In this document: in pieces, positions 9,873 through 61,303 of the stretch | How the letters are laid out: the number at the start of each line of letters is the position of its first letter | Position numbering within the stretch: position 1 is the first letter of the stretch | Position numbers and translations under genes: made by a program | DNA from: Pirellulales bacterium | GTDB taxonomy: Bacteria; Planctomycetota; Planctomycetia; Pirellulales; JBBDJB01 | Length of the DNA: 64,000 nucleotides | Reading direction: 5' to 3' | Assembly: GCA_040880125.1 (NCBI GenBank) | Contig: JBBDJB010000052.1 | Location: 188,281-252,280 of the forward strand | Notes under the pieces: generated by a model | Told to the model about the DNA's origin: nothing | Databases searched by the model: none | Seen by the model: the letters and a program-made list of their open reading frames with translations, nothing else

Positions 9873-9884
9873 TTGACCTCCAAG

Positions 9885-9962
9885 GTGGCACAGACATTCC
9901 TGAATGTGCCCTTGAGTTGTTCCATACCCTTCACCGGCACAGACAGGAATGTCTGTGCCACG
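9885..9962. repeat. Two Family-A palindromic hairpin elements (GGCACAGACA-ttcc/ggaa-TGTCTGTGCC) immediately after the 8682..9872 stop
   Basis: 9885-9910 imperfect copy. 9936-9962 has a perfect 10-bp stem with GGAA loop. Related copies at 12172, 27494 and 57459. Confidence 0.75.
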
Positions 9963-12171: not shown

Positions 12172-12198
12172 GGTGGCACAGCCATTCCTGACTGTGCC
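12172..12198. repeat. Family-A palindromic hairpin element (one mismatch) 27 bp after the UXS stop
   Basis: ggtggcacagccattcctgactgtgcc. Confidence 0.7.
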
Positions 12199-12758: not shown

Positions 12759-12835
12759 CGCAGCTACCCTGCGCTGGAGTAGGACGCCGGCAGGGGTCTG
12801 CACTTGCAACGGTTTCAAACGCGAGGATTGGGAAG

Positions 12836-13711
12836 ATGGATACGAATCGCCCAGCGTCCGGCTCGGGTCGGATCTTGCACCGCAAGTCCTTGTCCTGCAT
12901 TGCCATGCTGACGGTTGCACTTTGCCTCGGCGTAACGTCGACGAGCGGGTGCCGCGGCGAAAATGCGCCGACCAAAGACGTCCCCGAACCGGCCAGTCCC
13001 AACGACGTGCCGGGCAGCCCTGGTGTGGAAAGCGAAGCGCAAGCCGCCGTTATCTCGCCCGCCGCCAGTCAGTCCGTGCCCGACGAGCAAGACAAGACAA
13101 GCAGCACGCAGCCGGAGAATCAAAATGCGGGGGCGAAACAAAATGAAGAAGGTACCCCGCTGTTCGACGGCAAGTCCCTCGAAGGCTGGAAGGTCTCGGA
13201 CTTCGCCGGCCACGGCGAGGTTCGCGTCGAAAACGGGCAATTGATTCTTCCCTGGGGGGAGGCGCTGACTGGAGTCACTTCAACACGTGAACTGCCCACC
13301 GAAGACTATGAAATTCACCTGGAGGCGATGCGCGTGGATGGCAGCGACTTTTTCTGTGGGCTTACGTTTCCCGTCGGAGACGATCCGGCGAGCCTGATCC
13401 TTGGCGGCTGGGGCGGCACGGTCGTCGGTGTTTCCAGCATCAACGGGAGTGATGCCAGCGAAAACGAGACGACCAAGTACATGAACTTCGACACCGGCAA
13501 CTGGTACGCAGTCCGCCTCCGCGTGACTGAGCCGCGGATCGAGGCCTGGATCGGCGAGGAAAAGGTTGTCGAACTGGAGCGAGCCGGGCGGGAATTCTCC
13601 ATCCGGCCGGAGGTCGAGCTCTCACGGCCGCTGGGCATCGCCTCCTGGCAGACCACCGCCGCGCTGCGGAACATCCGCCTCATCTCGTTGGCCGACGAAA
13701 TGAAACCGTGA
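12836..13711 (+). CDS. Lipoprotein with DUF1080 / 3-keto-disaccharide hydrolase-like (LamG-type) domain. The ORF 12497..13711 is trimmed to Met at 12836.
   Basis: Lipobox LTVALCLGVTSTSGC. FDGKSLEGWKV...NGQLIL...YEIHLEAMRVDGSDFFCGLTFPVGD typical of DUF1080. Confidence 0.7.
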   Translation: MDTNRPASGSGRILHRKSLSCIAMLTVALCLGVTSTSGCRGENAPTKDVPEPASPNDVPGSPGVESEAQAAVISPAASQSVPDEQDKTSSTQPENQNAGAKQNEEGTPLFDGKSLEGWKVSDFAGHGEVRVENGQLILPWGEALTGVTSTRELPTEDYEIHLEAMRVDGSDFFCGLTFPVGDDPASLILGGWGGTVVGVSSINGSDASENETTKYMNFDTGNWYAVRLRVTEPRIEAWIGEEKVVELERAGREFSIRPEVELSRPLGIASWQTTAALRNIRLISLADEMKP

Positions 13712-13771
13712 CCAATGCAGCCCGCGGCACCGTGCATTGCTACCGCGCCGCCGGCAGTCGAAGATAGAATC

Positions 13772-14809: not shown

Positions 14810-14862
14810 GCGTTCGCTGCGAGTGCCGGGTCGAACACGCTAGCAGGCCGCAGCGATGCGTG

Positions 14863-15855
14863 CTACGCCAGCCACCACGTCGCGAAGCCAAAGTAGTAGC
14901 ACAGCGTCGCGGTGTCGGCCAGCGCGAGCACGACCGGCCCGGAAGCGACCTTCGGGTCGCGCTGAAGCAGGCCTAAAATCCCCGGAATTAAGATCCCCAG
15001 TGCAGCGGCCGTCACGATGGAGAAGGCCATGCTGAGGAGGATCGACAATGCCACCGCTGGTATGCCCTGCCAAAACAAAGCCACGCCGCCAACCAAGCAA
15101 CCGCTCGCAATTCCGATCAGTGCCCCGATCGGCACCTCGCGGACCAGCGACCGGAAGAGTGAACTGAAGTTGACGCGGGTCCCATGTTGCATTTGCAAGC
15201 TTAAAGTCAGCGACTGAATGCTCATGCTTTCGGCCAGTGCAAGCACCACGGGAATAAACAATGCCAGCACCAGCACCTTGTCCAGCACGTCTTGAAACAG
15301 ACTTGTAATAAACGCGCACAGCAAGCCGCCTGCAATGTTGCATAACAGCCAGGGAAATCGTCGAGCGAACGCCGTGGGTAGATGGGCCTGCTGAACCTGG
15401 GCCAAACGTACGCCGATGAGTTGAAAAACATCCTCGCTCTCTTCGTACCGCGTTACATCGGAGATCTCGCTGGCATAAAGCTCGACGTCGATTACGCCGA
15501 TAATCCGTCGCTCCGAGTCCACGACCGGTAGGGCGAGCAGCCGGTGCATGATGAAAAACTCGCAGGCTTCCAGCACCGTGGCAGATTCCGGTAGGGCCAC
15601 CACCTTGTGCACCATTACGTCTTCAATCCGCGTATCGGGTGGGTTCAGTAGCAGTCGGCGCGTGGGTACCACGCCGATGAGCCGGTCCTCATCATCCACC
15701 ACGTAAAAATAGACGATGCGCTGAGCTTTCCCCTCGCGCTGGACCTGGGCCAGCGCCTCGCCGATTGTCTGATGGGCCGAGATTCGCACAAAGTCCGTGC
15801 GAATGTGTTCCAGAGCGCTCTGGTTGAGATGGTCGAGGGGCTGTACAGCGGTCAT
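14863..15855 (-). CDS. mgtE: Magnesium transporter MgtE (CBS pair + MgtE TM domain). The ORF is trimmed from 16203 to Met at 15855.
   Basis: CBS-domain pair followed by a 5-TM region ...GILIPGILGLL.... The upstream extension of the ORF is not protein-like. Confidence 0.82.
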   Translation of the reverse strand: MTAVQPLDHLNQSALEHIRTDFVRISAHQTIGEALAQVQREGKAQRIVYFYVVDDEDRLIGVVPTRRLLLNPPDTRIEDVMVHKVVALPESATVLEACEFFIMHRLLALPVVDSERRIIGVIDVELYASEISDVTRYEESEDVFQLIGVRLAQVQQAHLPTAFARRFPWLLCNIAGGLLCAFITSLFQDVLDKVLVLALFIPVVLALAESMSIQSLTLSLQMQHGTRVNFSSLFRSLVREVPIGALIGIASGCLVGGVALFWQGIPAVALSILLSMAFSIVTAAALGILIPGILGLLQRDPKVASGPVVLALADTATLCYYFGFATWWLA

Positions 15856-16078
15856 GCGGGCTCCTGTCCGCGAGTTTTTTCTTTGTGCTGGCCGGAATCT
15901 CCTTGGGAATGGTTCTAATCGTAGTTCCGCGATACCGCAATGGTCTCCAGTGAAACCGTTTATGGCGAGGGTCCAACCCCACCCTCCGGCGTCCACGTCG
16001 TCTGAACGTTCTCCGGCAACTTCACTCGCTCGGGCACCTCGCGTGACAACCAGCGCACTGCCGGCCCCGGATCTTTTT

Positions 16079-16871: not shown

Positions 16872-17411
16872 CTAGTTGATCAGCAGCGGCCAGGCAGGGT
16901 CGGAGTCGCCCCCGCGGCGTTCCCACTCGCGGCGGACTTCGCCCAGGCCAAAGACGCACATTTCGAAGTCGTCGCTCAGGCGCTGCAGGACGGCCGGCCG
17001 CGGCGGCTCGGACTCGACCGCGATCGTGCTGGCGATGTAGTACGCCCGCTTGCCCTGGGTCTGGTAGTCCAGCAAGGCGTCCTTGCGGCCCAGCCGCCGC
17101 ATGCGCTCGAAGACCTCCGGATAGACGCCGCACCAGAAGAGCGTGAAGTCGCCGATGTGGCGATGAACTTTGCGCCGGGCCTCGCCTTGCCGAGCTTCCG
17201 CCTCCAGCAGCATGTCGGCTACTTGGTCGAGCCGCTTGCCCGTGGGGCCGCGGACGCTGAAGACGTCGTCGTTGCGAATGAAGCGGACGAGCAGTTCCGC
17301 CAGGTAGTCGACCAGCGGCGGGTCAACGACCCCCAGGCGGCAACCAAAGGCGTATTCCGTGAGCCCGGCGAAGAACCGCCGGACCGTATCCTGGCGCGGA
17401 TTCGGCTTCAT
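16872..17411 (-). CDS. Conserved hypothetical protein (about 180 aa). Start uncertain; the ORF extends to 17612.
   Basis: Protein-like C-terminal 180 aa (MKPNPRQDTVRRFFAGL...). No recognised domain. Confidence 0.45.
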   Translation of the reverse strand: MKPNPRQDTVRRFFAGLTEYAFGCRLGVVDPPLVDYLAELLVRFIRNDDVFSVRGPTGKRLDQVADMLLEAEARQGEARRKVHRHIGDFTLFWCGVYPEVFERMRRLGRKDALLDYQTQGKRAYYIASTIAVESEPPRPAVLQRLSDDFEMCVFGLGEVRREWERRGGDSDPAWPLLIN

Positions 17412-17621
17412 GGGCGTTCTGTTCCTCCTCGCTCCGCGACTTGCCCGAGGCGGCGGGTGCCGCAGCGGACGAGTTACTCGAGAAAAGGCCCAACTGCCGA
17501 CCGGCAGACAACTTACGGGCCTCTCCTCCATCGCACGATTGAGGGCGTAGAGCCGGCCGCACGCAGCAGGGCGCCGACTTACCTCATCTATTTTACCTTC
17601 GAATTTTCTCATGGGTCAAGG

Positions 17622-17845
17622 TTTGTCCATTTTTACGGAATGTCAGTGATCGTCGTAAGCTATATAATAGTAATATGTTACCGCATGATGTGTGCGGACC
17701 ATCTCCGCTGCGCGTGTCCAATTGGACGCGCTTTCCGGGGGGCCCCACGATTGTCCATTTGGACAGGGCTCCCGGCTGGCGCTGGCGCGCCGAGCCGATT
17801 TTTCACGCCCCGTTGGACAGCAACTTTTTCGCTGTCCATTTGGGG
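17622..17845. promoter_or_regulatory. Array of four TGTCCA-N(2-3)-TGGACA palindromic sites in an AT-rich intergenic region; candidate operator sites
   Basis: Sites at 17622, 17716 (GTCCAATTGGAC, perfect), 17752 (TGTCCATTTGGACA) and 17812/17831 (GGACAGC...GCTGTCC). A TATAAT-like tract lies at 17660. Confidence 0.4.
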
Positions 17846-18360
17846 CGGCTGGGGACGCTCAAGTCTCGCGCTCCCCCGACCGCAAATGAATTGACTGGTA
17901 GTCGCTAACAAAACAAATCGAATCTGTCGACGTAAACTACCGCCTCGGGCGCCCAGATTGATGCATTCACCCCAGAACCATCACGGATAAGAGCTGGTAA
18001 GCACAGAAGCGATCTCAAATATAATACACAAAACTGTGTTCATTGTCAAGCCTTGGCAAAGCGAGAGGCGGGTGTTGGCCACGGGTAGAGCCGCAACCAC
18101 TGGATCGACAGTCCAGTATTCTAATGGGGGCGATGGAGGTAAAGGGCAGCCAGACCGAGGGGCCTTCGCGGCAATCACGCCGAGCGGGCGATACGGGTTC
18201 CTCTACTCTGGTTCAGGGTTTGGTACAGGAGGCATTGCCCCCCACTCCCAGGCTTATCCCGGACCAGAGAAGAGGAACCGGTAGGCCCTTGTGGCCGGCG
18301 CCGTCGTGCCGTTGTGGTTTCCACTTCGGTCTACAGATCCATTGGACGGCACCGGTTGCG

Positions 18361-18831: not shown

Positions 18832-18949
18832 TGGAACGTGCGACGTCTCGCTTGCCCGAGCGTTCCACTAACGGTGTGGTGCAAATGCGGCTTTCACGTT
18901 TAAAGCAATCCTACGTGGATGACGAGGTCAAGCCACTTGTGAAATTTCA

Positions 18950-19840
18950 CTACCTGGGTGGCTCGATTTGGTCAGCCTTCCCGATGTTACAATCTTTGCA
19001 GAGCGTTCGAAGATTCTCAAACTCAGTCACACCACCCTTTGACCAAGGGAGGATGTGATCGACGTGCAGGTTCACGTGTTGGTTGGTCGCAGGGCTACGG
19101 CCGCAAAGGACGCAGCGAAACCGATCGCGCACGAGAACTCGATATCGGAGTCCTAAAGGAGCGTCTCGCGGACCACTCCTCTCCCGGGAAGGCCGATCAT
19201 CAATAGCTGAAGCTGGGTTCGATTCGACATCATCTGACAAGGTAGTGCGATCGCCAGAGTTTGCGCGTTCGACAAACGCTTCTAATGCGCGGAGCCAACT
19301 GCCCCAGCGCAGGACGTACGCCTTAGATCCGACCTTCGACGGCGGCATATTCATCTCGTCATGCTTGGGAGGACGGCCTAGCTTTGTCCAAACGCTTAAC
19401 AGGTTCTCGTAGCATTCTTCGTCCGTGTAACGTATGCCGCGTTTCGTCTGTCTTAAGCCAGCAGCTACGAGCGCCTTCTTCCACGAGCCAAACTGAGCGA
19501 GAACGGCGTGACATTTGAACTTGCCGTGTATGTAAAAGTCAGTCTTGATCAGCTCTGATGTGTGAAGCTTAGCGGCAACACGGCGCAATTCCGAGACAAT
19601 TTCTTCAGCGCTGCGCGCGCGGTTGGATTGATTTACTAGGTGGTCCAAACCTGCCGCGTGGAGCGCATTTCGCCAACTTCCAAACCGCTTCCGAAGCGTC
19701 GAGGAATGGACGCGCGATAAAGAGTCAAACTGCTTTACAGAAAGCGACGTTGTTGAGACCAGACCTGCTACGCGCCTGACCTCAGCGAGAATATCTGCGT
19801 CGTCGTGCGATGTTAATCGGTTAAGCTCAAACTTCGACAT
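18950..19840 (-). CDS. HNH endonuclease with N-terminal homing-endonuclease-associated repeats (FGSWxxAL motif x3)
   Basis: C-terminal CVLCGR...HVDHILPWSKGG...ENLRTLCKDCN HNH motif. Repeats RKRFGSWRNALHAAGL, LAQFGSWKKALVAAGL and LRWGSWLRALEAF. Local GC is clearly lower than the surroundings. Confidence 0.8.
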   Translation of the reverse strand: MSKFELNRLTSHDDADILAEVRRVAGLVSTTSLSVKQFDSLSRVHSSTLRKRFGSWRNALHAAGLDHLVNQSNRARSAEEIVSELRRVAAKLHTSELIKTDFYIHGKFKCHAVLAQFGSWKKALVAAGLRQTKRGIRYTDEECYENLLSVWTKLGRPPKHDEMNMPPSKVGSKAYVLRWGSWLRALEAFVERANSGDRTTLSDDVESNPASAIDDRPSRERSGPRDAPLGLRYRVLVRDRFRCVLCGRSPATNQHVNLHVDHILPWSKGGVTEFENLRTLCKDCNIGKADQIEPPR

Positions 19841-19871
19841 GGCTTCGCGTTAATTCGGAACGATACGACCG

Positions 19872-20057
19872 TCAAGGGACCGGAATGCTCAAGTCCCGAC
19901 AGATCTTGCGGGCCAGCGGGTCTGGTATCTCGGAATGACGCGGAACCGCGGATCGGCGGTTATTGGTCGGATTGCCCCACCATGAATGGCGACGTCCTTC
20001 GCGCACCAACAAACAGCCGTTTTGTTGGAGATGTCGAATAAGCGCGTGCCGCTTCAA
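19872..20057 (-). CDS. hicA: Type II toxin HicA (mRNA interferase)
   Basis: MKRHALIRHLQQNGCLLVREGRRHSWWGNPTNNRRSAVPRHSEIPDPLARKICRDLSIP matches the YcfA/HicA family. 61 aa. 4-bp overlap with upstream hicB. Confidence 0.8.
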   Translation of the reverse strand: MKRHALIRHLQQNGCLLVREGRRHSWWGNPTNNRRSAVPRHSEIPDPLARKICRDLSIPVP

Positions 20058-20272
20058 GGGGTCAATTCCACCTCTTCGAACTCACCGCTCACCGCCGCCG
20101 CCGCACGCGCATCGTCGCGATTCATTTCCACCGCTTCGCTCAAGGCGTCGCGGAGATTCTCCAACAACTCTTCGCGCGTGGCCCCTTGCGAGTTGACGCC
20201 GGGTACTTCTTCCACCCAACCGATCCACCATTGTTCGTGCTGCTGGATGACAGCCGTGTATTTTGCGGCCAT
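20054..20272 (-). CDS. hicB: HicB-family antitoxin (UPF0150-like); start chosen at MAAKYTAV
   Basis: YTAVIQQHEQWWIGWVEEVPGVNSQGATREELLENLRDAL is a typical HicB N-domain. Overlaps hicA start (ATGA). Confidence 0.7.
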   Translation of the reverse strand: MAAKYTAVIQQHEQWWIGWVEEVPGVNSQGATREELLENLRDALSEAVEMNRDDARAAAAVSGEFEEVELTP

Positions 20273-27462: not shown

Positions 27463-27519
27463 GGTGAATTCTTTCGCCAAGTAGAAGTTCAGACGTGGCA
27501 CAGACATTCCTGTCTGTGC
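27463..27519. repeat. Degenerate Family-B hairpin followed by a Family-A hairpin (GTGGCACAGACA-ttcc-TGTCTGTGC) and a short T-run; a half-copy of A lies at 27651-27672
   Basis: Read directly. Same tandem B+A arrangement as at 57459-57511. Confidence 0.6.
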
Positions 27520-27742
27520 GTTTTGCCGGCGGCTCATTCGAATGCCCTGAGGGGCAGGCCGTACGGCACTATTTCGCTTTGCCTTGGCGGAACGTTCTTG
27601 GTAGGAAGCCCGCGAGCAGAGCAACCTGGGCTCGTCAATTCGATTCGCATAGCCAGGAATGTCTGTGCCACCACACGGGTGGGCTGCCGCTATTGTGGTG
27701 ATTCTACACCCGGAATATCCGTGCCAGCGAGCGGTTTTAGGG

Positions 27743-40769: not shown

Positions 40770-41044
40770 GATGTCGTCGCCCGCTGAAGGTTGAAGGTTT
40801 CGATCCGCCGGAAGTGCCTCTTATAGTGGCGGCTCGGCGAACGGATTTCAACTACTTCGCAGGCGCAGGGGCGCTCGAAACAGGGGACTGGCTCGATGTG
40901 CGCGAGGGGCCCCCTCATTCGAACGCGGGCTTTGGCATCGTGCCAGTCCCCCCTTTTCGTCGCTTCCGGGCCGCCCGAGGGGCTTCACCGCGCTTTTTGC
41001 ACTAAGCAGCCCGTCCCATTTCCCGTTCCGCTGCGAAGGCGCGC

Positions 41045-45276: not shown

Positions 45277-45706
45277 AGCGCTGCCAAGGGTGCCAATGCT
45301 GTCCCCTCCAGCAGCTACGTTTGTCCCGGTGGCACCCTGCGAGTTTCATCGCACACCTCCGCAACGCTTCTTGTAACTCTTACAAGCCGGAGGGCACGGC
45401 GGCCGAGTGGCGAAGGGCGAGTCGTTGCCGCTAAGTGCTACCACGCAACCCGCTGATACGCAGGAGCTTACGCCAGTTTCTCACTGCTGTTAGCGACTTC
45501 GCCAACGCCCCCAACACCTTTTGGCACGCCAGGTGCATTAGAGACTGGCACAGTTGTTCGACCCAGTTGGCCCCAGGCCCCGCAGCCTCGGGCCAAAACA
45601 ATCCGGGGGGGCCGATCTACTGTACCGTGAATCTTAGCAGCGCGTCGCCGGGGTATGGCGACGACAAACACCCGACACGGGTTGGCGCAGTTTTTTACGG
45701 TTGATG

Positions 45707-45755
45707 GACCCAGGTGGCTGGAAGCTCGCAGAGCCACCTGGGTCCGTTTTTTTTT
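45707..45755 (+). terminator. Canonical intrinsic terminator: 13-bp perfect stem (GACCCAGGTGGCT/AGCCACCTGGGTC), 12-nt loop, T9 tail
   Basis: Read directly. Oriented for + strand transcripts. Lies 430 bp downstream of the 44830..45276 stop. Confidence 0.7.
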
Positions 45756-45809
45756 GCGCGGCGGCCAGTCGCCAATTCGAGCGGGAATCGCGACTGTGTG
45801 AACTGACTA

Positions 45810-56197: not shown

Positions 56198-56260
<63 letters not shown>

Positions 56261-56473
56261 GTGGCGCGGGGTGTGACGTGCCGGAGGTGTAGCTGAACGC
56301 TTCTCCGACATTAGTCGCAAGCATACCAACCGAACCCCGGACCCCGAACCCCGCCCTCCGCCCTCCGCGCGGTGTTATGATAGACGGCAATCCTTGGCCG
56401 TTCGCCTGCCGGCAACGCAGGCCGGCATGCGTGCCGCTTATCAAAACTCTCCCCGAATGGAAGTTGTCCCAGC

Positions 56474-57451
56474 GTGAAACAGATTCTCATCACCGGCGGC
56501 GCCGGATTCATCGGCAGTCATCTGGCCGACACCCTGTTGGCGCGGGGACATCGCGTCACGGTGGTCGACAACGAGTCGGCCGGATCGCCGGATAACCTTC
56601 AAGCGGCCGGTCGACATTTCGACTTCCAGTACGTCCGCGGCGCCGTCGAAGACCGGCCGCTGATGCGTGAGCTGCTGGCCGATGTCGACGAGGTCTATCA
56701 CTTGGCCGCGCCCGAAGGCGTCGAGCGGCTGGCCCGGCTGCCGGCCAGGGTGATTCAAAAACAATGGCGGGCGCTGGACGGGTTGGTGTCGGAGATGGCC
56801 CGCCGCCACAAGTCGGGCCCCCCCGTGAAGTGGTTCTTCGCCAGCAGCGGGGATGTCTACGGCTGCCGCTCCAGCGATTCATTCTCGGAGGACGAGCCGC
56901 TCAGCTTCGGGCCGGTTTCGGACGTCGGTCAGGCGGCCGGCGCGTCCAAGGCGCTGGGCGAGTTTCTCGCCCTGGCGGCACAGCGGCAGCATGGCCTGCC
57001 GGTGATTATCGGCAGGCTCTTTAACGTGGCCGGCCCACGCCAGTCGGCCCGCTGGGGCAAGGTCGTGCCGCGCCTGGTGAGCTGCGCACTGGAGGGTCGC
57101 GCGCCGGTCGTGCACGACGACGGCGGCCAGACGCGGGCGTTTCTGCACGTGGCCGACGCTTGCGAGGCGATCGCCGATCTGATGGAGAACGGCACCGTGA
57201 CAGGCAATGTCTTCAACATCGGCGGCGAACGGCCCATCAGTATTTTTCAACTGGCCGAACGAGTCGTCGCCGCCGTCGACGCGAAGCTGGACATCGAGTT
57301 TGAAAGCTACCGCAACACGTACGGCGAAGGTTTTGCCGCAGTCCGCCATCGCATGGCCGATCTGACCCGGCTCAAGCAGACGATTCATTTCGCGCCGCAA
57401 CACGACCTCGACGTGATTGTGACGGAAGTCATCGAGTGGCTGCGGGCATAG
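56474..57451 (+). CDS. NAD-dependent epimerase/dehydratase (extended SDR, UDP-sugar epimerase-like)
   Basis: ILITGGAGFIGSHLADTLLARGHRVTVVDN... Rossmann motif, 325 aa, GTG start. Confidence 0.88.
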   Translation: MKQILITGGAGFIGSHLADTLLARGHRVTVVDNESAGSPDNLQAAGRHFDFQYVRGAVEDRPLMRELLADVDEVYHLAAPEGVERLARLPARVIQKQWRALDGLVSEMARRHKSGPPVKWFFASSGDVYGCRSSDSFSEDEPLSFGPVSDVGQAAGASKALGEFLALAAQRQHGLPVIIGRLFNVAGPRQSARWGKVVPRLVSCALEGRAPVVHDDGGQTRAFLHVADACEAIADLMENGTVTGNVFNIGGERPISIFQLAERVVAAVDAKLDIEFESYRNTYGEGFAAVRHRMADLTRLKQTIHFAPQHDLDVIVTEVIEWLRA

Positions 57452-57458
57452 CCATTTT

Positions 57459-57511
57459 GGTGGCACGGACATTCCTGTCTGTGCGCAGGCTGAATTGCGG
57501 ACAATTCAGCC
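57459..57511. repeat. Tandem Family-A hairpin (GGCACGGACA-ttcc-TGTCTGTGC) and Family-B hairpin (GGCTGAATTG-cgga-CAATTCAGCC) starting 8 bp after the epimerase stop
   Basis: Read directly. 10-bp stems with 4-nt loops. Confidence 0.75.
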
Positions 57512-57601
57512 TCCCCGCCGGCGACCGCCACCACGCGATCAACGAGCTCGATCGGCTTTACACGCCCTGAAACGATTTCATATTTTGATGTGAAAAAGTA
57601 G

Positions 57602-57629
57602 TTGCAAAATCGCCCCTGCCGTGTACAAT
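57602..57629 (+). promoter_or_regulatory. Near-consensus sigma70-type promoter (TTGCAA - 16 bp - TACAAT) in an AT-rich intergenic region; a GGACACCGGGTGTCC palindrome overlaps the predicted TSS
   Basis: Hexamers and spacing read directly. The surrounding 150 bp is strongly AT-rich relative to the genome. Confidence 0.4.
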
Positions 57630-57635
57630 ATGGAC

Positions 57636-57826
57636 ACCGGGTGTCCGGCCTGCTGACGGCACGTATTGGGAGGCCGCCTTCGGCGATTCCCGACGACGCA
57701 GATCCGCCATAGCACGCGACGCCGTCGCAGAGACAAGCTGACTTTTTAAACACTTGAAAAAAGCCGGGGGTTCAAAAAAGGTGCCGCTTCACGCGGCTGG
57801 CGCAGTGTGGGGCACTGCCTTTTTTT
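57636..57826 (+). ncRNA. Candidate small RNA (about 190 nt) between the predicted promoter and the intrinsic terminator at 57802-57826; unknown family
   Basis: Promoter-to-terminator unit with internal hairpins (GCGACGccGTCGC; GCAGTGtggggCACTGC+T7). No ORF longer than 30 codons. Not matched to SRP, 6S, tmRNA or RNase P by eye. Confidence 0.3.
57802..57826 (+). terminator. Intrinsic terminator: GCAGTG-tgggg-CACTGC followed by T7
   Basis: Read directly. Flanked by direct repeats GGGGGTTCAAAAAAGGTG (57766) and GGGGGCGTTCAAAAAAGGGTG (57852). Confidence 0.65.
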
Positions 57827-58089
57827 CAACAGAAACGGGTTCCCCGGTAAGGGGGCGTTCAAAAAAGGGTGGGAAACCACCACGCTCACAAGTTCACGAC
57901 CAAACGAAATGACTCCATACGACGGCGCTTCACCCCACCAAGCGGTGCTTGACGCTCCGTCCGGGTCGCGGTGACAATACATAAGTGGCGGGCCGGCCAA
58001 TCGGGGGCGGCCTCTCTTCACGGCCCGCTGCCAGGAGAAGTTCAATGCTCCGGCTTCACTCGACCGCTCGTTCCGAGCGGCCTATTGCC

Positions 58090-59649
58090 ATGCCACTCGC
58101 ACGGCCGATCGCCGCGCGCTGCGGACTGACGCTCATCGAAATGCTGGTGGCGATGTCCATCACGCTATTGATGATGGCTTCTGTCGTGACGATCTTCGAC
58201 CAGTTCGGCCGGGGCGTGAACGACAGCCGCGCCACGCTCGAAATGACCAGCCGCCTGCGAGACGTCCGCAATCGGCTGCAATCGGATCTGGCCGGCCTGA
58301 CCTGCCCGGCAGTCCCCTGGCAGCGGCCCGAGTCGGGTGTGGGATATCTCGAGATCTTCGAGGGGAGCAATACCGACTACGATCCCACGATCCTCAACAA
58401 GCCATCCGAAGTGGGCACGCCGCTCGACCCCAGCGAGAGCATCCTTCCCCCCAACGCCCGGGGTACTTTCGATCCCGAAGACGGCCCCTTCGGGCTGGGG
58501 GACGCCGACGACATTCTGATGATGACGGTTCGCAGCCCGGACCGGCCGTTTGTCGGACGGATGCGCGTGCCGGTGTTGCCGTCTGGATTTCAGACCGTCT
58601 CCATCCAGTCGCACGTTGCGGAAGTTATCTGGTACGCCGTGGAAAATCCCGTGGATGGGTCGCTGGGCGAACCGGGCATGCGGACGCTGTATCGCCGCAT
58701 CCTGCTGGTTATGCCCGGAGCTGAGTATCGCCCCCCGGGATCACCGACTTCGGTCCCGCTTCTTCAAGCCGCCACTGGCTACGATGAATTTAATTTCTAT
58801 TCACACTACGACGTCTCCGCCCGGCGTGATGCCACCGGACGCTGGATCCCCAACACACTGGCGGATTTGACCAAGCGCGAGAACCGCTTTGCCCATGGCA
58901 CTTTCCCGCAGGATCCAAGGGAATTCCCGTTTTGGCTGCGCGCCGATGCTTTGCGCAGTCACAGGCCGATCTACAACCGGAGGGCCAACGGAGCCAGTGC
59001 CTTGCGGCCTTTTGGTGAGCCGTTCGCCCAGGGGCATCCCGAATGGGCCCTCCGCGCCGGCGAAGACGTGATCATGACCGATATTCTCGGCTTCGACATT
59101 CGCGTCTACGATCCTCAGGCGCCGATGTACGAGGTTCCGCTTGACGGAAGCACGACGACAGTCGCTCCCGGAGACCCCGGTTGGCCGCCAGAGGGCGGCA
59201 ATCTCAACAACCCGGCGGGACTCGGCGCGTATGTGGACTTGGGCTACGCCTTTCGCCGTGAGCATTCGCCAGTCTATGGCCTATTCCCGGCATTTTCCGG
59301 GCTAACCGGCACCGTCGTCACGCCCTTTAGCGCCCGACCGGGACCCTTGCACCGGGGCGTCCAGGGCACACCCGGCACATATACCCTCGGTGCTTGGTTC
59401 TACGACACCTGGTCGTTCCACTACGAGCATGACGGCATCAGTCAGGACGGCCCGGACGGAATCGACGAAGGCACCGACGGCTTCAACAGCGATCTGGTGA
59501 ATTCCGCGGTCGACGACATGTCGGAATTCGAGACGTCGCCGCCATATCCGGTGCCTTTGCAGGGCGTCGAAATCAAGATCCGCGCGTACGAACGCTTCAG
59601 CCGGCAGATTCGCGAGGTCACCGTCCGCCAAGACTTCGCCACGCAGTAG
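58090..59649 (+). CDS. DUF1559-type protein with type IV pilin/pseudopilin N-terminal cleavage-methylation domain (planctomycete-specific family), unusually long (519 aa)
   Basis: MPLARPIAARCG|LTLIEMLVAMSITLLMMASVVTIFD prepilin signature. A possible promoter TTGACG-18-GACAAT lies at 57949-57978. Confidence 0.8.
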   Translation: MPLARPIAARCGLTLIEMLVAMSITLLMMASVVTIFDQFGRGVNDSRATLEMTSRLRDVRNRLQSDLAGLTCPAVPWQRPESGVGYLEIFEGSNTDYDPTILNKPSEVGTPLDPSESILPPNARGTFDPEDGPFGLGDADDILMMTVRSPDRPFVGRMRVPVLPSGFQTVSIQSHVAEVIWYAVENPVDGSLGEPGMRTLYRRILLVMPGAEYRPPGSPTSVPLLQAATGYDEFNFYSHYDVSARRDATGRWIPNTLADLTKRENRFAHGTFPQDPREFPFWLRADALRSHRPIYNRRANGASALRPFGEPFAQGHPEWALRAGEDVIMTDILGFDIRVYDPQAPMYEVPLDGSTTTVAPGDPGWPPEGGNLNNPAGLGAYVDLGYAFRREHSPVYGLFPAFSGLTGTVVTPFSARPGPLHRGVQGTPGTYTLGAWFYDTWSFHYEHDGISQDGPDGIDEGTDGFNSDLVNSAVDDMSEFETSPPYPVPLQGVEIKIRAYERFSRQIREVTVRQDFATQ

Positions 59650-60235: not shown

Positions 60236-60429
60236 GCGATTGTGACCCGCATAACGCTCGGCGATTCACTTTGCAATGACTGCCGCTTTGCCGTTCCGGC
60301 GAAGGCTCAAATACGACTCGACGTACCGTCGGCCATCTGGACCGCAGCTCCCCCGCCGGCACTGTTGCACTGGACCGAACCGCCCGACACAATACCGACG
60401 TGGCGGCCGGCTTGTACAGCGTAAGCACT

Positions 60430-60740
60430 TGCCCCCGCTGGCGCGTACAGCCGGTCGTCACATTTGCATCGTCGCTGCTGTCACTGTTCATCACGTGGGC
60501 CCGCATCATCGGTTCGACCGAACCGCCGGGGACGGTGCTGGTGGACTACAATTAGAACGCCTGGGGGCGGACCTTGGCGAGCGTTTACAGCGTCCGGCCG
60601 CGCAAAGGAGCAACGGTTTTTGCTCCCGTTACCTGGGACGAAGTGCAGCAAGGCATCCGCGTGGAGGACTTCCACCAGCAGAACATGCCAGAGCGCCTTG
60701 AGCAGGTTGGCGATCTATGGAGACCACTGACCTACGCCAA
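60430..60740 (+). pseudogene. Remnant of NHEJ LigD polymerase/primase domain (C-terminal about 90 codons) with in-frame TAG
   Basis: Translation ...TVLVDYN*NAWGRTLASVYSVRPRKGATVFAPVTWDEV...DFHQQNMPERLEQVGDLWRP matches the LigD-Pol C-terminus (VDYLQN...APYSVR...VS.PL.WDE...FT....P.RL...GD.W). No intact upstream domain. Confidence 0.5.
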
Positions 60741-61303
60741 GCAGGGCCGCTCGGACTGCCGTCTCGCGGAATCGAAACGGGGGGCAAATTCGCTTCTCAG
60801 TGGTTCGCGTGCGGGTTACAATCCCCAGGCCTTAACGGCACAACACGCTCGCCCGAGCAATGGAAATCTTGTTGCGCCGTCCAGGAATCATGCACAGGCG
60901 ACCCGGCGGTGCCGGCCGGCAACGGAAGGCAGCCGCACGTACCAAGCGCCCCGGAATCGACTGGTAGTGGCAGAGAGGCTTGCTTTAAGTGAACTCGTTG
61001 TCGGCGACCAAGTGGAGCTTTAATGCGGTTATGCGAGTGCGGCGTTTCTGTGCCTCAATCCTATTCTGCCCTCATGGCAGCTCTCTCGCTTTCAGCTTTC
61101 TGACCGGCGAATGCGGTTAGCATTGATCGAACCACCTCTCGCCCGCGCGCACTTCCCCAGCATGAATCAGGGAAGCTAGCTTCCTCCAAGCGGCCCCCCA
61201 GGCCGCTGGGCGACGACCGTTGTGATGTTTTTCCTCTTGGACGCTGCGCGGCCTGTGCAGCGAAGTCCGACAGCCGGCGCGGCCAACGAGCCGCGACACT
61301 CGC

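Follow-up and report, generated by a model that had tools for sequence, protein, structure and literature searches.

The locus lies in a 64,000-nt stretch of contig JBBDJB010000052.1 (assembly GCA_040880125.1, positions 188,281 to 252,280) from a Pirellulales bacterium; we call this whole stretch the window and give all positions within it. Two plus-strand genes, encoding a sugar epimerase and a pseudopilin-like protein, flank an intergenic gap of 593 nt (Table 1). An earlier note on this DNA had measured the gap as 530 bp to a GTG at 57985, which falls at about the transcription start of promoter P2; the longer figure is correct because the conserved start of the gene is the ATG at 58045, with AGGAG just 5´ of it. 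Nor is the gap unusually AT-rich, as had been proposed, since its GC content is 0.58 and the 28 intergenic regions of the window average 0.60 (range 0.53-0.69). Runs of at least six T are rare (14 in the 64-kb window, both strands), and four of the 14 fall within 57757-57866. Between 56000 and 60000 there are four promoter-like sites, against 0.7 expected, all in this gap; across the window 14 of 19 such sites are intergenic, although intergenic DNA makes up 19% of the sequence. The comparisons below use a close relative (locus L082), the only relative genome with the region, which has diverged by 15% at neutral sites; as the neutral rate we took the 85.1% identity that four-fold sites show in the neighbouring epimerase gene.

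Table 1. Positions in the window of the features in and around the epimerase-pseudopilin-like gap.
Feature	Position	Strand	Remarks
Epimerase stop codon	57449-57451		
REP-like hairpin GTGGCACGGACATTCCTGTCTGTGC	57459-57485	+	directly 3´ of epimerase stop; kept in L082 and L083
Further copies of the REP-like hairpin	9884(+), 9961(-), 12172(+), 27495(+), 27673(-)		
Perfect 11-bp hairpin AGGCTGAATTG-cgga-CAATTCAGCCT	57487-57512	+	inverted repeat I6; no T-run 3´ of the hairpin
Promoter P1, sigma-70 type, TTGCAA-16-TACAAT	57602-57629	+	predicted start near 57636
5´ body of putative RNA	57636-57721	+	not conserved; length varies
Small hairpin GCGAC-gcc-GTCGC	57716-57728	+	begins the conserved 3´ domain; L082 keeps the stem, with a loop 6 nt longer
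41-nt invariant block CCGTCGCAGAGACAAGCTGACTTTTTAAACACTTGAAAAAA	57722-57762	+	identical run between window and L082
Two-way intrinsic terminator	57774-57826	both	A6 (57774-57779), G+C-rich hairpin, T7 (57820-57826)
Second GTTCAAAAAAGG copy with hairpin GGTGG-tttc-CCACC	57853-57881	-	minus strand reads hairpin, then T6
Promoter P2, TTGACG-18-GACAAT	57949-57978	+	orthologous promoter of the pseudopilin-like gene, 70 nt 5´ of the ATG
5´ leader of pseudopilin-like mRNA	57985-58044	+	hairpin GCGGGCCG...CGGCCCGC with TCGGGGG loop, then AGGAG and ATG
Pseudopilin-like gene	58045-59649	+	534 aa; prepilin N-terminal cleavage/methylation domain; PulJ/GspJ-like family

The gap opens with two hairpins. The first is a short imperfect palindrome of the REP type, repeated between genes and often in inverted pairs: its five further copies in the window are 88-96% identical and all intergenic, and two sets are paired, at 9884(+)/9961(-) and 27495(+)/27673(-). 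In L083 the stem of the second hairpin is kept through a swap of G-C to C-G at the loop-closing pair. The two together (57455-57520) fold at -33.8 kcal/mol (z = -5.0), and this predicted twin hairpin is likely the 3´ end structure of the epimerase mRNA.

At the other end of the gap, the pseudopilin-like gene has its own promoter. The sequence at P2 had been noted before as a second, weaker promoter; it is present, and it proves to be the widely conserved promoter of this gene, with the motif cTTGACttt-~15 nt-cGGTGCAATAg standing upstream of the gene in 30 of 77 related loci (background 0.039 per kb per strand). An 80-nt run from P2 through the leader (57964-58043) is identical in L082. Leaders at orthologous loci contain a hairpin with a YCAGGGG loop on stems of differing sequence, the median stem having 6 pairs against 4.1 in the null. 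Owing to their differing loop and stem lengths, RNAalifold on a MAFFT alignment of the P2 leaders gave no consensus; significance was taken instead from a flank-shuffle test, in which 9 of 28 leaders reached p<=0.05. The gene product had been assigned to DUF1559, and this assignment does not hold: Pfam and NCBIfam show a prepilin N-terminal methylation domain only (N_methyl PF07963, 20.9 bits against a cutoff of 21.2; TIGR02532, 17.2 bits against a cutoff of 16.3), and the homologs are named as PulJ/GspJ family or prepilin-type proteins.

Between these two units stand a promoter and a terminator on the same strand, about 190 nt apart, with no conserved ORF from P1 (57602-57629) to the end of the terminator at 57826. 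Both are where the earlier note had placed them, as the near-consensus P1 sequence and as the hairpin GCAGTGtggggCACTGC (57802-57818) followed by T7. In L082, P1 reads TTGCAA-16-TATAAT (10/12), the change from TACAAT to TATAAT being toward consensus, and a 33-nt run that overlaps P1 (57589-57621) is identical. The P1 block as a whole (block B) is 84% identical to L082, which is not significantly above neutral. Because promoter-like sites are so strongly concentrated in intergenic DNA here, a site of this quality is usually real.

The terminator is well formed in both directions. The G+C-rich hairpin (57774-57819) precedes the T7 on the plus strand, and with A6 on its 5´ side the reverse strand reads as a hairpin followed by T6. 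It folds at -24.2 kcal/mol on the plus strand (-27.2 in L082) and at -22.5 on the minus strand (-23.2 in L082), with z from -2.0 to -2.9 (-2.9 for the minus strand here). The fold is the same in L082, whose three substitutions lie in loops or turn G-U into G-C and are all compatible with it. Among 38 base pairs compared between these two sequences only, none changed on both sides and two changed on one.

Conservation reaches well beyond the hairpin on its 5´ side. Over the 109 nt of 57722-57830, identity with L082 reaches 95.4%, where four-fold sites have 85.1% (P = 0.0007), and this conservation ends at 57830, within 5 nt after the T7. The abrupt stop fits the 3´ end of a plus-strand RNA. Folding of 57715-57770 gives z = +0.3, essentially no structure; being conserved yet unstructured, 57722-57762 is a candidate single-stranded functional region, either a seed or a protein-binding site.

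The part between P1 and this block behaves differently. Relative to L082 it has 65% identity in MAFFT columns plus 239 gap columns, and in L082 a repeat element of ~250 nt splits it; the 5´ two-thirds of the putative RNA evolve neutrally. The several hairpins formerly described in the ~190-nt body are no better than those of shuffled sequences (z = -0.78 for the whole RNA). The palindrome GGACACCGGGTGTCC reported at the predicted +1 is indeed there (57632-57646); L082 has lost it and reads GTACAGTGGGTGATC, and the window holds no further copy. It is probably without function, and we rejected it as an operator on both counts. Also set aside were a small protein encoded between P1 and the terminator (there are only short non-ATG ORFs, and indels of 1 nt and 16 nt in L082 break every frame) and base pairing between the 5´ part of the RNA and the leader of the pseudopilin-like gene (through inverted repeats I2 and I4). 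For the latter, 57637-57678 is partially complementary to 57988-58027, and this complementarity is weaker in L082 although the leader there is identical.

We tentatively suggest, with slightly less than even confidence, that the middle of the gap specifies a separate non-coding transcript, particular to this lineage, in which the 3´ domain is the functional part. P1 would start a plus-strand RNA near 57636, and this RNA would end at the T7 of the intrinsic terminator, for a length of about 190 nt in the window and of about 430 nt in L082. Its constrained part would be the last ~110 nt (57716-57826), running from the small hairpin through ~45 nt of unstructured, A/U-rich sequence that contains A6 tracts to the terminator hairpin and the U-tail, while the 5´ part would be free to vary. 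In known sRNAs, A-rich tracts, an A/U-rich single strand, a terminator hairpin and a U-tail form an Hfq-binding module. By analogy, the 3´ domain may let the RNA act in trans, whether it base-pairs, binds an RNA chaperone or does both. The terminator could also work on the minus strand and so insulate the RNA unit and P2 from each other, and the pseudopilin-like gene would be expressed from its own conserved P2 and not from P1. That the epimerase gene already has a strong twin hairpin at its stop supports reading the module as a separate unit.

The proposal of an independent small transcript had been made from the window alone, and the comparison with L082 bears out one part of it. P1, the terminator and the 3´ domain are kept; the 5´ body, the palindrome and a structured whole RNA are not supported. 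The reading of an independent unit is weakened by resting on one relative at 15% neutral divergence with no compensatory double substitutions, by P1 conservation that does not exceed neutral, by a 5´ body that is unconstrained and tolerates the ~250-nt insertion, by the whole-RNA z-score, and by the lack of an Rfam match or of a homolog beyond L082.

The candidate resembles the Hfq-binding trans-acting sRNAs of Proteobacteria in its orphan sigma-70-type promoter joined to an intrinsic terminator without an intervening ORF, and in the conserved, unstructured A/U-rich stretch with A6 tracts that lies directly 5´ of the terminator hairpin and U7 tail. Class II Hfq-binding sRNAs carry A-rich ARN tracts. 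It differs in that it has no relation to any known sRNA by sequence or in Rfam, and in that its conserved part is the 3´ domain, not a 5´ seed.

The main rival, which we consider unlikely and take seriously, is that a plain two-way terminator insulates P2 and no small RNA functions here. On this view the A6-hairpin-T7 element would stop epimerase read-through and antisense transcription before P2, and P1 would be incidental or decaying, or weak with a product that has no role. The neutral rate at P1, the unconstrained and repeat-split 5´ body and the whole-RNA fold all sit comfortably with such an element. So do other loci: among the 28 others that carry P2, 11 show a canonical hairpin with T6-8 on the plus strand upstream of it, at 59-229 nt in ten cases and 412 nt in L072. 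Measured from the nearest long plus-strand ORF, eight of these 11 follow at 56-160 nt, six of them at 56-79 nt, and three (L047, L051 and L072) lie 135-415 nt away. That a terminator upstream of P2 in these loci simply belongs to the preceding gene is a further weakness of the independent-unit reading.

The element in the window has the A-tract, G+C-rich hairpin and T-tract of bidirectional intrinsic terminators, stable on both strands and kept in L082. Bidirectional terminators usually lie between convergent genes, whereas the flanking genes here share a strand, and this element is found 3´ of a promoter and past the strong twin hairpin, at a distance of 369 nt from the epimerase stop (about 660 nt in L082), with a second minus-strand hairpin and T6 following 87 nt further on. 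Against simple insulation, too, the 45 nt that precede the terminator hairpin show no change although they are unstructured, an invariance that no terminator needs. Sites of P1 quality rarely arise by chance in intergenic DNA here, and both P1 hexamers are kept or improved in L082. The distant loci where an epimerase gene and a pseudopilin gene with P2 are syntenic (L007, L020 and L067) have gaps of 89-128 nt and no T-run terminator, which argues that the P1-to-T7 module is an addition of this lineage and not an ancestral epimerase terminator.

Much less probable, in our view, is the transcription-attenuation leader suggested before, in which P1 would serve the pseudopilin-like operon as a distal promoter and the T7 hairpin would be a regulated attenuator controlling whether P1 transcripts extend to the gene. 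As in attenuation leaders and riboswitches, promoter, terminator and gene share one strand; no other terminator intervenes at 57830-58045, and pairing with the U7 tail could be contested between two A6 tracts and a U5 tract. However, an independent, conserved P2 separates terminator and gene, and since P2 is a real and widely conserved promoter with its own leader hairpin, an attenuation leader is disfavoured. The sequence from terminator to P2 is neutral (80% identity), and no constraint is seen 5´ of the conserved block, where a sensor would be expected and where the ~250-nt insertion of L082 falls. A 5´ UTR under the gene's own promoter with a conserved sensor, as attenuators and riboswitches have, is not what we find here; the gap lacks a conserved aptamer or leader peptide and has no Rfam match to a riboswitch or leader family.

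The flanking direct repeat described in the earlier note is present, as GGGGGTTCAAAAAAGG and GGGCGTTCAAAAAAGG at 57766-57781 and 57853-57868, and is more than a direct repeat. The window contains two exact copies of its 12-mer GTTCAAAAAAGG, where 0.12 would be expected, and the A6 tract of the repeat is the T6 tail of minus-strand terminator-like hairpins. Copy 1 is the A-tract arm of the two-way terminator. Copy 2 lies in a neutral stretch (block E, 80% identity with L082), and its hairpin (57853-57881) folds weakly (-10 kcal/mol, z = -0.7); one stem substitution in L082, a single event, keeps pairing on the minus strand only (U-G). Tandem duplication was rejected as the source of the repeat, since the copies are separated and followed by unrelated sequences, as was, by eye, a sigma-54 promoter at the terminator and the REP hairpin (spacing or -12 element unfit, not conserved). 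It also seems very doubtful that the gap acts at the DNA level or from the minus strand, with the TTSAAAAAAG copies and the 41-mer as protein-binding or DNA-bending sites acting on P2, or the pair of minus-strand hairpins with T6 ending a short RNA that diverges from P2: four TTSAAAAAAG copies (direct at 57754, 57771 and 57858, inverted at 57819-57830), two terminator-like sites on the minus strand and the substitution just described would agree with this, but the gap has no minus-strand promoter of at least 8/12 and none that is conserved, block E is neutral where the region upstream of the minus-strand RNA's terminator should be conserved and conservation lies instead beyond that terminator, copy 2 evolves at the neutral rate, the A-tracts are spaced 17 and 87 nt apart and out of helical phase, and 170-230 nt separate the sites from the sigma-70-type promoter downstream of them.

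How far does the candidate small RNA extend? An Rfam assignment would have made it a known RNA; no family matches at its gathering score over the window, or at E<=10 in 57400-58100. In the L082 gap the only matches at E<=10 are to miRNA precursors, Phe_leader and RybB; they score far below threshold and fall on the repeat insert and the terminator region. A tRNA/tmRNA search found none. Conservation of the gap upstream of homologous genes, which the earlier note had asked about, is not seen: blastn and nhmmer detected no similarity at 80 pseudopilin-homolog loci. These loci came from a genome scan with a protein alignment and are all distant (31-45% identity); a scan with the single pseudopilin-like protein had no match. 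A covariance model of the conserved 3´ domain (R1), run over the window and 81 loci, matched only its own locus and L082. Pattern and distant-mode searches gave no match in viral contigs (three patterns), plasmids and phages (distant mode), and a metagenome pattern scan with GACTTTTTAAACACTTGAAAAAA gave one match (L085), on an unrelated AT-rich contig, which we took as chance. REP- and MITE-like repeats do contribute to the region, through the hairpin at the epimerase stop and the L082 insert, which is related to window 40852-41023; the P1-to-terminator module, in contrast, has no second copy in the window or any fetched locus, and is therefore not a repeat element.

As it stands, the candidate is an ordinary, unvalidated and genus-restricted one. 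The fullest version of the proposal, a true regulatory RNA that acts in trans in an uncultured genus of Pirellulales and departs from the classic 5´-seed sRNA design, with a freely evolving, repeat-hosting 5´ part and a functional, constrained 3´ domain, possibly acting on the adjacent pseudopilin-like operon and among the first sRNAs defined in Planctomycetes, strikes us as improbable. RNAduplex energies between the putative RNA and the start regions of all 39 genes in the window were uninterpretable, and a literature search on planctomycete sRNAs or Hfq returned nothing specific. A 2022 review counts 8 distinct sRNAs for the whole PVC group of Planctomycetes, Verrucomicrobia and Chlamydiae (PMC9029176, Table 1). 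Were the RNA real, it would be among very few regulatory RNAs known from Planctomycetes, and would indicate that a search for promoters paired with intrinsic terminators works in these G+C-rich genomes. A sturdier by-product of the analysis is P2 with its CAGGGG-loop leader hairpin; the promoter is strikingly conserved in many Pirellulales, which points to shared regulation of the pseudopilin-like gene across the order.

In an uncultured Pirellulales bacterium, the gap between the epimerase gene and the pseudopilin-like gene contains a sigma-70-type promoter, P1 (TTGCAA-16-TACAAT), a palindrome at its predicted start, and a downstream hairpin followed by T7, all where an earlier note had placed them. 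We tentatively suggest, at somewhat less than even confidence, that P1 and the terminator bound an independent non-coding transcription unit. P1 would fire at about 57636, and the putative plus-strand RNA would end at T7, giving about 190 nt here and about 430 nt in L082, the one close relative that spans the gap. No conserved ORF lies between P1 and the terminator. That the two signals are used is inferred. The RNA may act in trans through its 3´ domain, by analogy: A6 tracts, an A/U-rich single strand, the terminator hairpin and a U7 tail follow one another in a layout that, in Proteobacteria, is an Hfq-binding module, the distal face of Hfq taking A-rich and the proximal face U-rich RNA (PMC3936774, PMC3505971).

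Promoter-like sites and T runs are more concentrated in the gap than chance would allow. Between 56000 and 60000 there are four promoter-like sites, every one inside the gap (0.7 expected), 14 of the 19 sites in the window are intergenic, although intergenic DNA makes up 19% of the window, and four of the 14 T runs of at least six, which are rare in the 64 kb (both strands), lie within 57757-57866. Of all sigma-70-type matches in the window, the best (TTGACA-17-TATTAT, 11/12) sits at 18049 on the minus strand, in intergenic 17613-18360 upstream of the minus-strand gene 16872-17612, and favours the idea that promoter hexamers of E. coli type carry information in this organism. Two descriptions of the gap did not hold. 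With a GC of 0.58 it is not unusually AT-rich (intergenic regions of the window average 0.60 and span 0.53-0.69), and the 195-nt body, described as having several hairpins, folds no better than shuffles (z = -0.78).

Features of the gap and related elements (window coordinates; identity is to L082)
Feature	Position	Strand	Identity	Remark
NAD-dependent epimerase/dehydratase gene	56474-57451	+		upstream neighbour of gap
Hairpins after epimerase stop	57452-57540		81%	extra hairpin in L082
Epimerase twin hairpin	57455-57520			-33.8 kcal/mol, z = -5.0
P1 region	57541-57635		84%	33-nt identical run across -35; L082 -10 is TATAAT
P1	57602-57629	+		
Palindrome	57632-57646			
5´ body of putative RNA	57636-57721	+	65% in MAFFT columns, plus 239 gap columns	not conserved
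3´ body and terminator	57722-57830	+	95.4% (5 mismatches/108)	P = 0.0007 vs neutral
Repeat copies	57766-57781, 57853-57868			
Two-way terminator	57774-57826			A6-hairpin-T7
Simple hairpin; T7	57802-57818; 57820-57826	+		
Terminator to P2	57831-57948		80%	neutral, 16-nt indel
P2 and leader	57949-58044		94%	80-nt identical run
P2	57949-57978			TTGACG-18-GACAAT
Pseudopilin-like gene	58045 (start ATG)	+		534 aa; downstream neighbour of gap
REP-like palindromes	57459-57485, 9884-9909, 9937-9961, 12172-12197, 27495-27520, 27646-27673			two sites are inverted pairs

Homologs of the module were found in one close relative only, which retains P1 and the terminator. Its epimerase (P0121, 94% identical) is on two JGI contigs, one of which, L082 (2039 nt), spans the gap completely and enters the pseudopilin-like gene. 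Against the four-fold degenerate sites of the epimerase, taken as neutral (85.1% identical), the last 110 nt of the putative RNA are constrained. Conservation of this 3´ block starts at a small hairpin (57716-57728; stem kept in L082, loop 6 nt longer), runs through an invariant, unstructured A/U-rich stretch of 41 nt (57722-57762; fold of 57715-57770, z = +0.3), and stops no more than 5 nt past T7, a boundary consistent with a plus-strand RNA ending there. The +1 palindrome is lost in L082, which has GTACAGTGGGTGATC.

The extra length in L082 is a highly structured insert of about 250 nt between GACGGCA and CCTTCGGCGAT (L082 1245-1495). With it, the L082 P1-to-T7 transcript folds into two long hairpins (arms GGGGACTGGC/GCCAGTCCCC; z = -7.4). 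Window 40852-41023, which is intergenic between two minus-strand genes, matches the insert at 73-80% identity, and the insert is therefore a repeat element; the closing stems of the two copies differ in sequence, yet still pair. The element represents either a repeat/MITE-like family or a structured RNA of another kind. Tolerance of so large an insertion in the 5´ part would be expected if the function resided in the 3´ domain, or if the RNA body had none. A REP-like imperfect palindrome, GTGGCACGGACATTCCTGTCTGTGC, also recurs in intergenic regions close to gene ends.

The chief alternative, which we regard as unlikely though worth weighing, is a terminator that simply insulates in both directions, P1 being an incidental promoter. 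The copies GGGGGTTCAAAAAAGG and GGGCGTTCAAAAAAGG, described previously as a direct repeat, are present but have a simpler explanation: on the minus strand their A6 tract reads as the T6 tail of hairpin and T-run elements, and copy 1 provides the A-tract arm of a two-way terminator, whose fold is stable on the plus (-24.2 kcal/mol) and the minus strand (-22.5). Three L082 substitutions within the terminator disrupt the simple GCAGTG/CACTGC hairpin and all fit a longer one preferred by RNAfold and RNAalifold in both genomes (two in loops, one G-U to G-C), which weakly supports the longer fold; no double compensatory changes separate the two sequences, from which the structure was itself derived. 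A canonical plus-strand hairpin with T6-8 also lies upstream of P2, the promoter nearer the pseudopilin-like gene, in 11 of 28 other loci with P2 (59-229 nt away in ten, 412 nt in L072), so that a terminator ahead of P2 is a recurrent, ordinary arrangement and intrinsic terminators are in use in these bacteria. Eight of the 11 are 56-160 nt (six at 56-79 nt) and three (L047, L051, L072) 135-415 nt past the nearest long plus-strand ORF, a putative gene in each case. Against a plain epimerase terminator, 369 nt separate the terminator from the epimerase stop (about 660 nt in L082), the gene already has a very stable twin hairpin at its stop, one stem of which is kept in L083 via a G-C to C-G swap, and syntenic epimerase loci with P2 (L007, L020, L067) have short gaps that lack such a terminator. 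Distance, twin hairpin and short gaps together indicate that the P1-to-terminator module of about 400 nt is an addition in this lineage.

Other terminator-like sites were seen elsewhere in the window. The strongest of the whole window, at 45691-45760 (a hairpin of -31.4 kcal/mol leading into T9, and a T6 element 56 nt ahead of the T9), lies in intergenic 45277-45809 between convergent genes. On a rough gene map, four intergenic stretches reach about 1 kb or more, 12759-13714, 14810-16078, 18832-20185 and 60236-61303 (956, 1269, 1354 and 1068 nt), the second with two plus-strand hairpin and T6 sites (15875, 16074); genes or RNAs that lack annotation may be present in these stretches, where Rfam gave nothing at gathering score.

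A leader driven from P1 that attenuates the downstream gene is improbable, mainly because P2, downstream of the terminator, is the conserved promoter of that gene. P2, described as second and weaker, is indeed present, but its rank is reversed. Of 77 loci, 30 carry the motif cTTGACttt, about 15 nt, cGGTGCAATAg ahead of the pseudopilin-like gene (background 0.039 per kb per strand), the N-methyl motif following 60-280 nt downstream, and the window P2 (cTTGACgct...cGGTGaCAATAc) is this promoter. Loci with the motif include L003, L006-L010, L012-L014, L016, L018, L020, L022-L024, L026, L029, L031, L034, L041, L043, L045, L047, L051, L058, L066, L067, L072 and L082. Five of the six L082 mismatches in the P2 and leader block are in the P2 spacer, the sixth at 58044. 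Most leaders, located upstream of the match at about 3501 in the loci, form a hairpin whose stem sequence differs among loci and whose loop keeps YCAGGGG (TCGGGGG in the window, enclosed by GCGGGCCG...CGGCCCGC), and GGAACAGAG lies between hairpin and ATG. In a flank-shuffle test nine of 28 leaders reached p<=0.05 (1.4 expected), and the median stem had 6 pairs, the null 4.1. The leaders of the window and L082, the only two scanned, match no Rfam family. The leader may be a cis-regulatory element common to Pirellulales and not yet described; promoter and CAGGGG-loop leader rest on many more sequences than the module, and may be the more useful lead. We give as little credence to a DNA-level or minus-strand role of the repeated A-tract motif. 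The boundary past T7 does not suit a minus-strand RNA, as the conserved body of such an RNA would fall in the neutrally evolving block right of the terminator.

Any genome holds many sRNA candidates of this kind. If real, the putative RNA is a lineage-specific sRNA candidate whose definition rests on promoter, terminator and local conservation, in a phylum with very few known sRNAs (eight for the whole PVC group; PMC9029176). Rfam gave no family at gathering score over the whole window and nothing even at E<=10 on 57400-58100; no tRNA or tmRNA genes were found. The pseudopilin-like protein has hundreds of homologs. If a fragment is set aside (P0002, 69% identical across two-thirds of the query), whose 1.1-kb contig lacks upstream DNA, the nearest is 49% identical. 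The gap had no nucleotide similarity (blastn, nhmmer) to any of 80 loci fetched from species-representative genomes (homologs at 31-45% identity), nor did a covariance model of the 3´ domain match them. The order TPR protein, TerC, epimerase, pseudopilin-like gene, orf186 is kept in nine loci, whose gaps (89-478 nt) have unrelated contents, such as REP-like palindromes and long hairpins.

The downstream protein is 100% identical to NCBI 'MAG: prepilin-type N-terminal cleavage/methylation domain-containing protein [Pirellulales bacterium]', encoded on a contig of 252 kb, and the stretch is also present on one Logan contig, L001. Pfam and NCBIfam recognize solely a prepilin N-terminal methylation domain; the gene is not DUF1559, and its homologs are named PulJ/GspJ family or prepilin-type. 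The longest-ORF start, GTG 57985 (554 aa), falls at about the P2 transcription start and is probably wrong; ATG 58045, the conserved start, is preceded by AGGAG, is identical in L082 together with 80 nt upstream, and is the Logan call on L001. The gap is therefore 593 nt (57452-58044), longer than when measured to the GTG. Between the TerC and epimerase genes lies a perfect heptamer tandem repeat, CGGGATG x 8.7 (56200-56260, also 56330-56368), and heptamers (CGTCATT, CCTCCAG, CCCCATT and others) occur just upstream of the N-methyl motif in several orthologous loci (L003, L006, L008, L016, L026, L027, L051, L078), apparently between a presumed ATG and the motif. If the repeats are coding, copy-number change would shift the reading frame, the unit being 7 nt, and they may confer phase variation on the pseudopilin-like gene.
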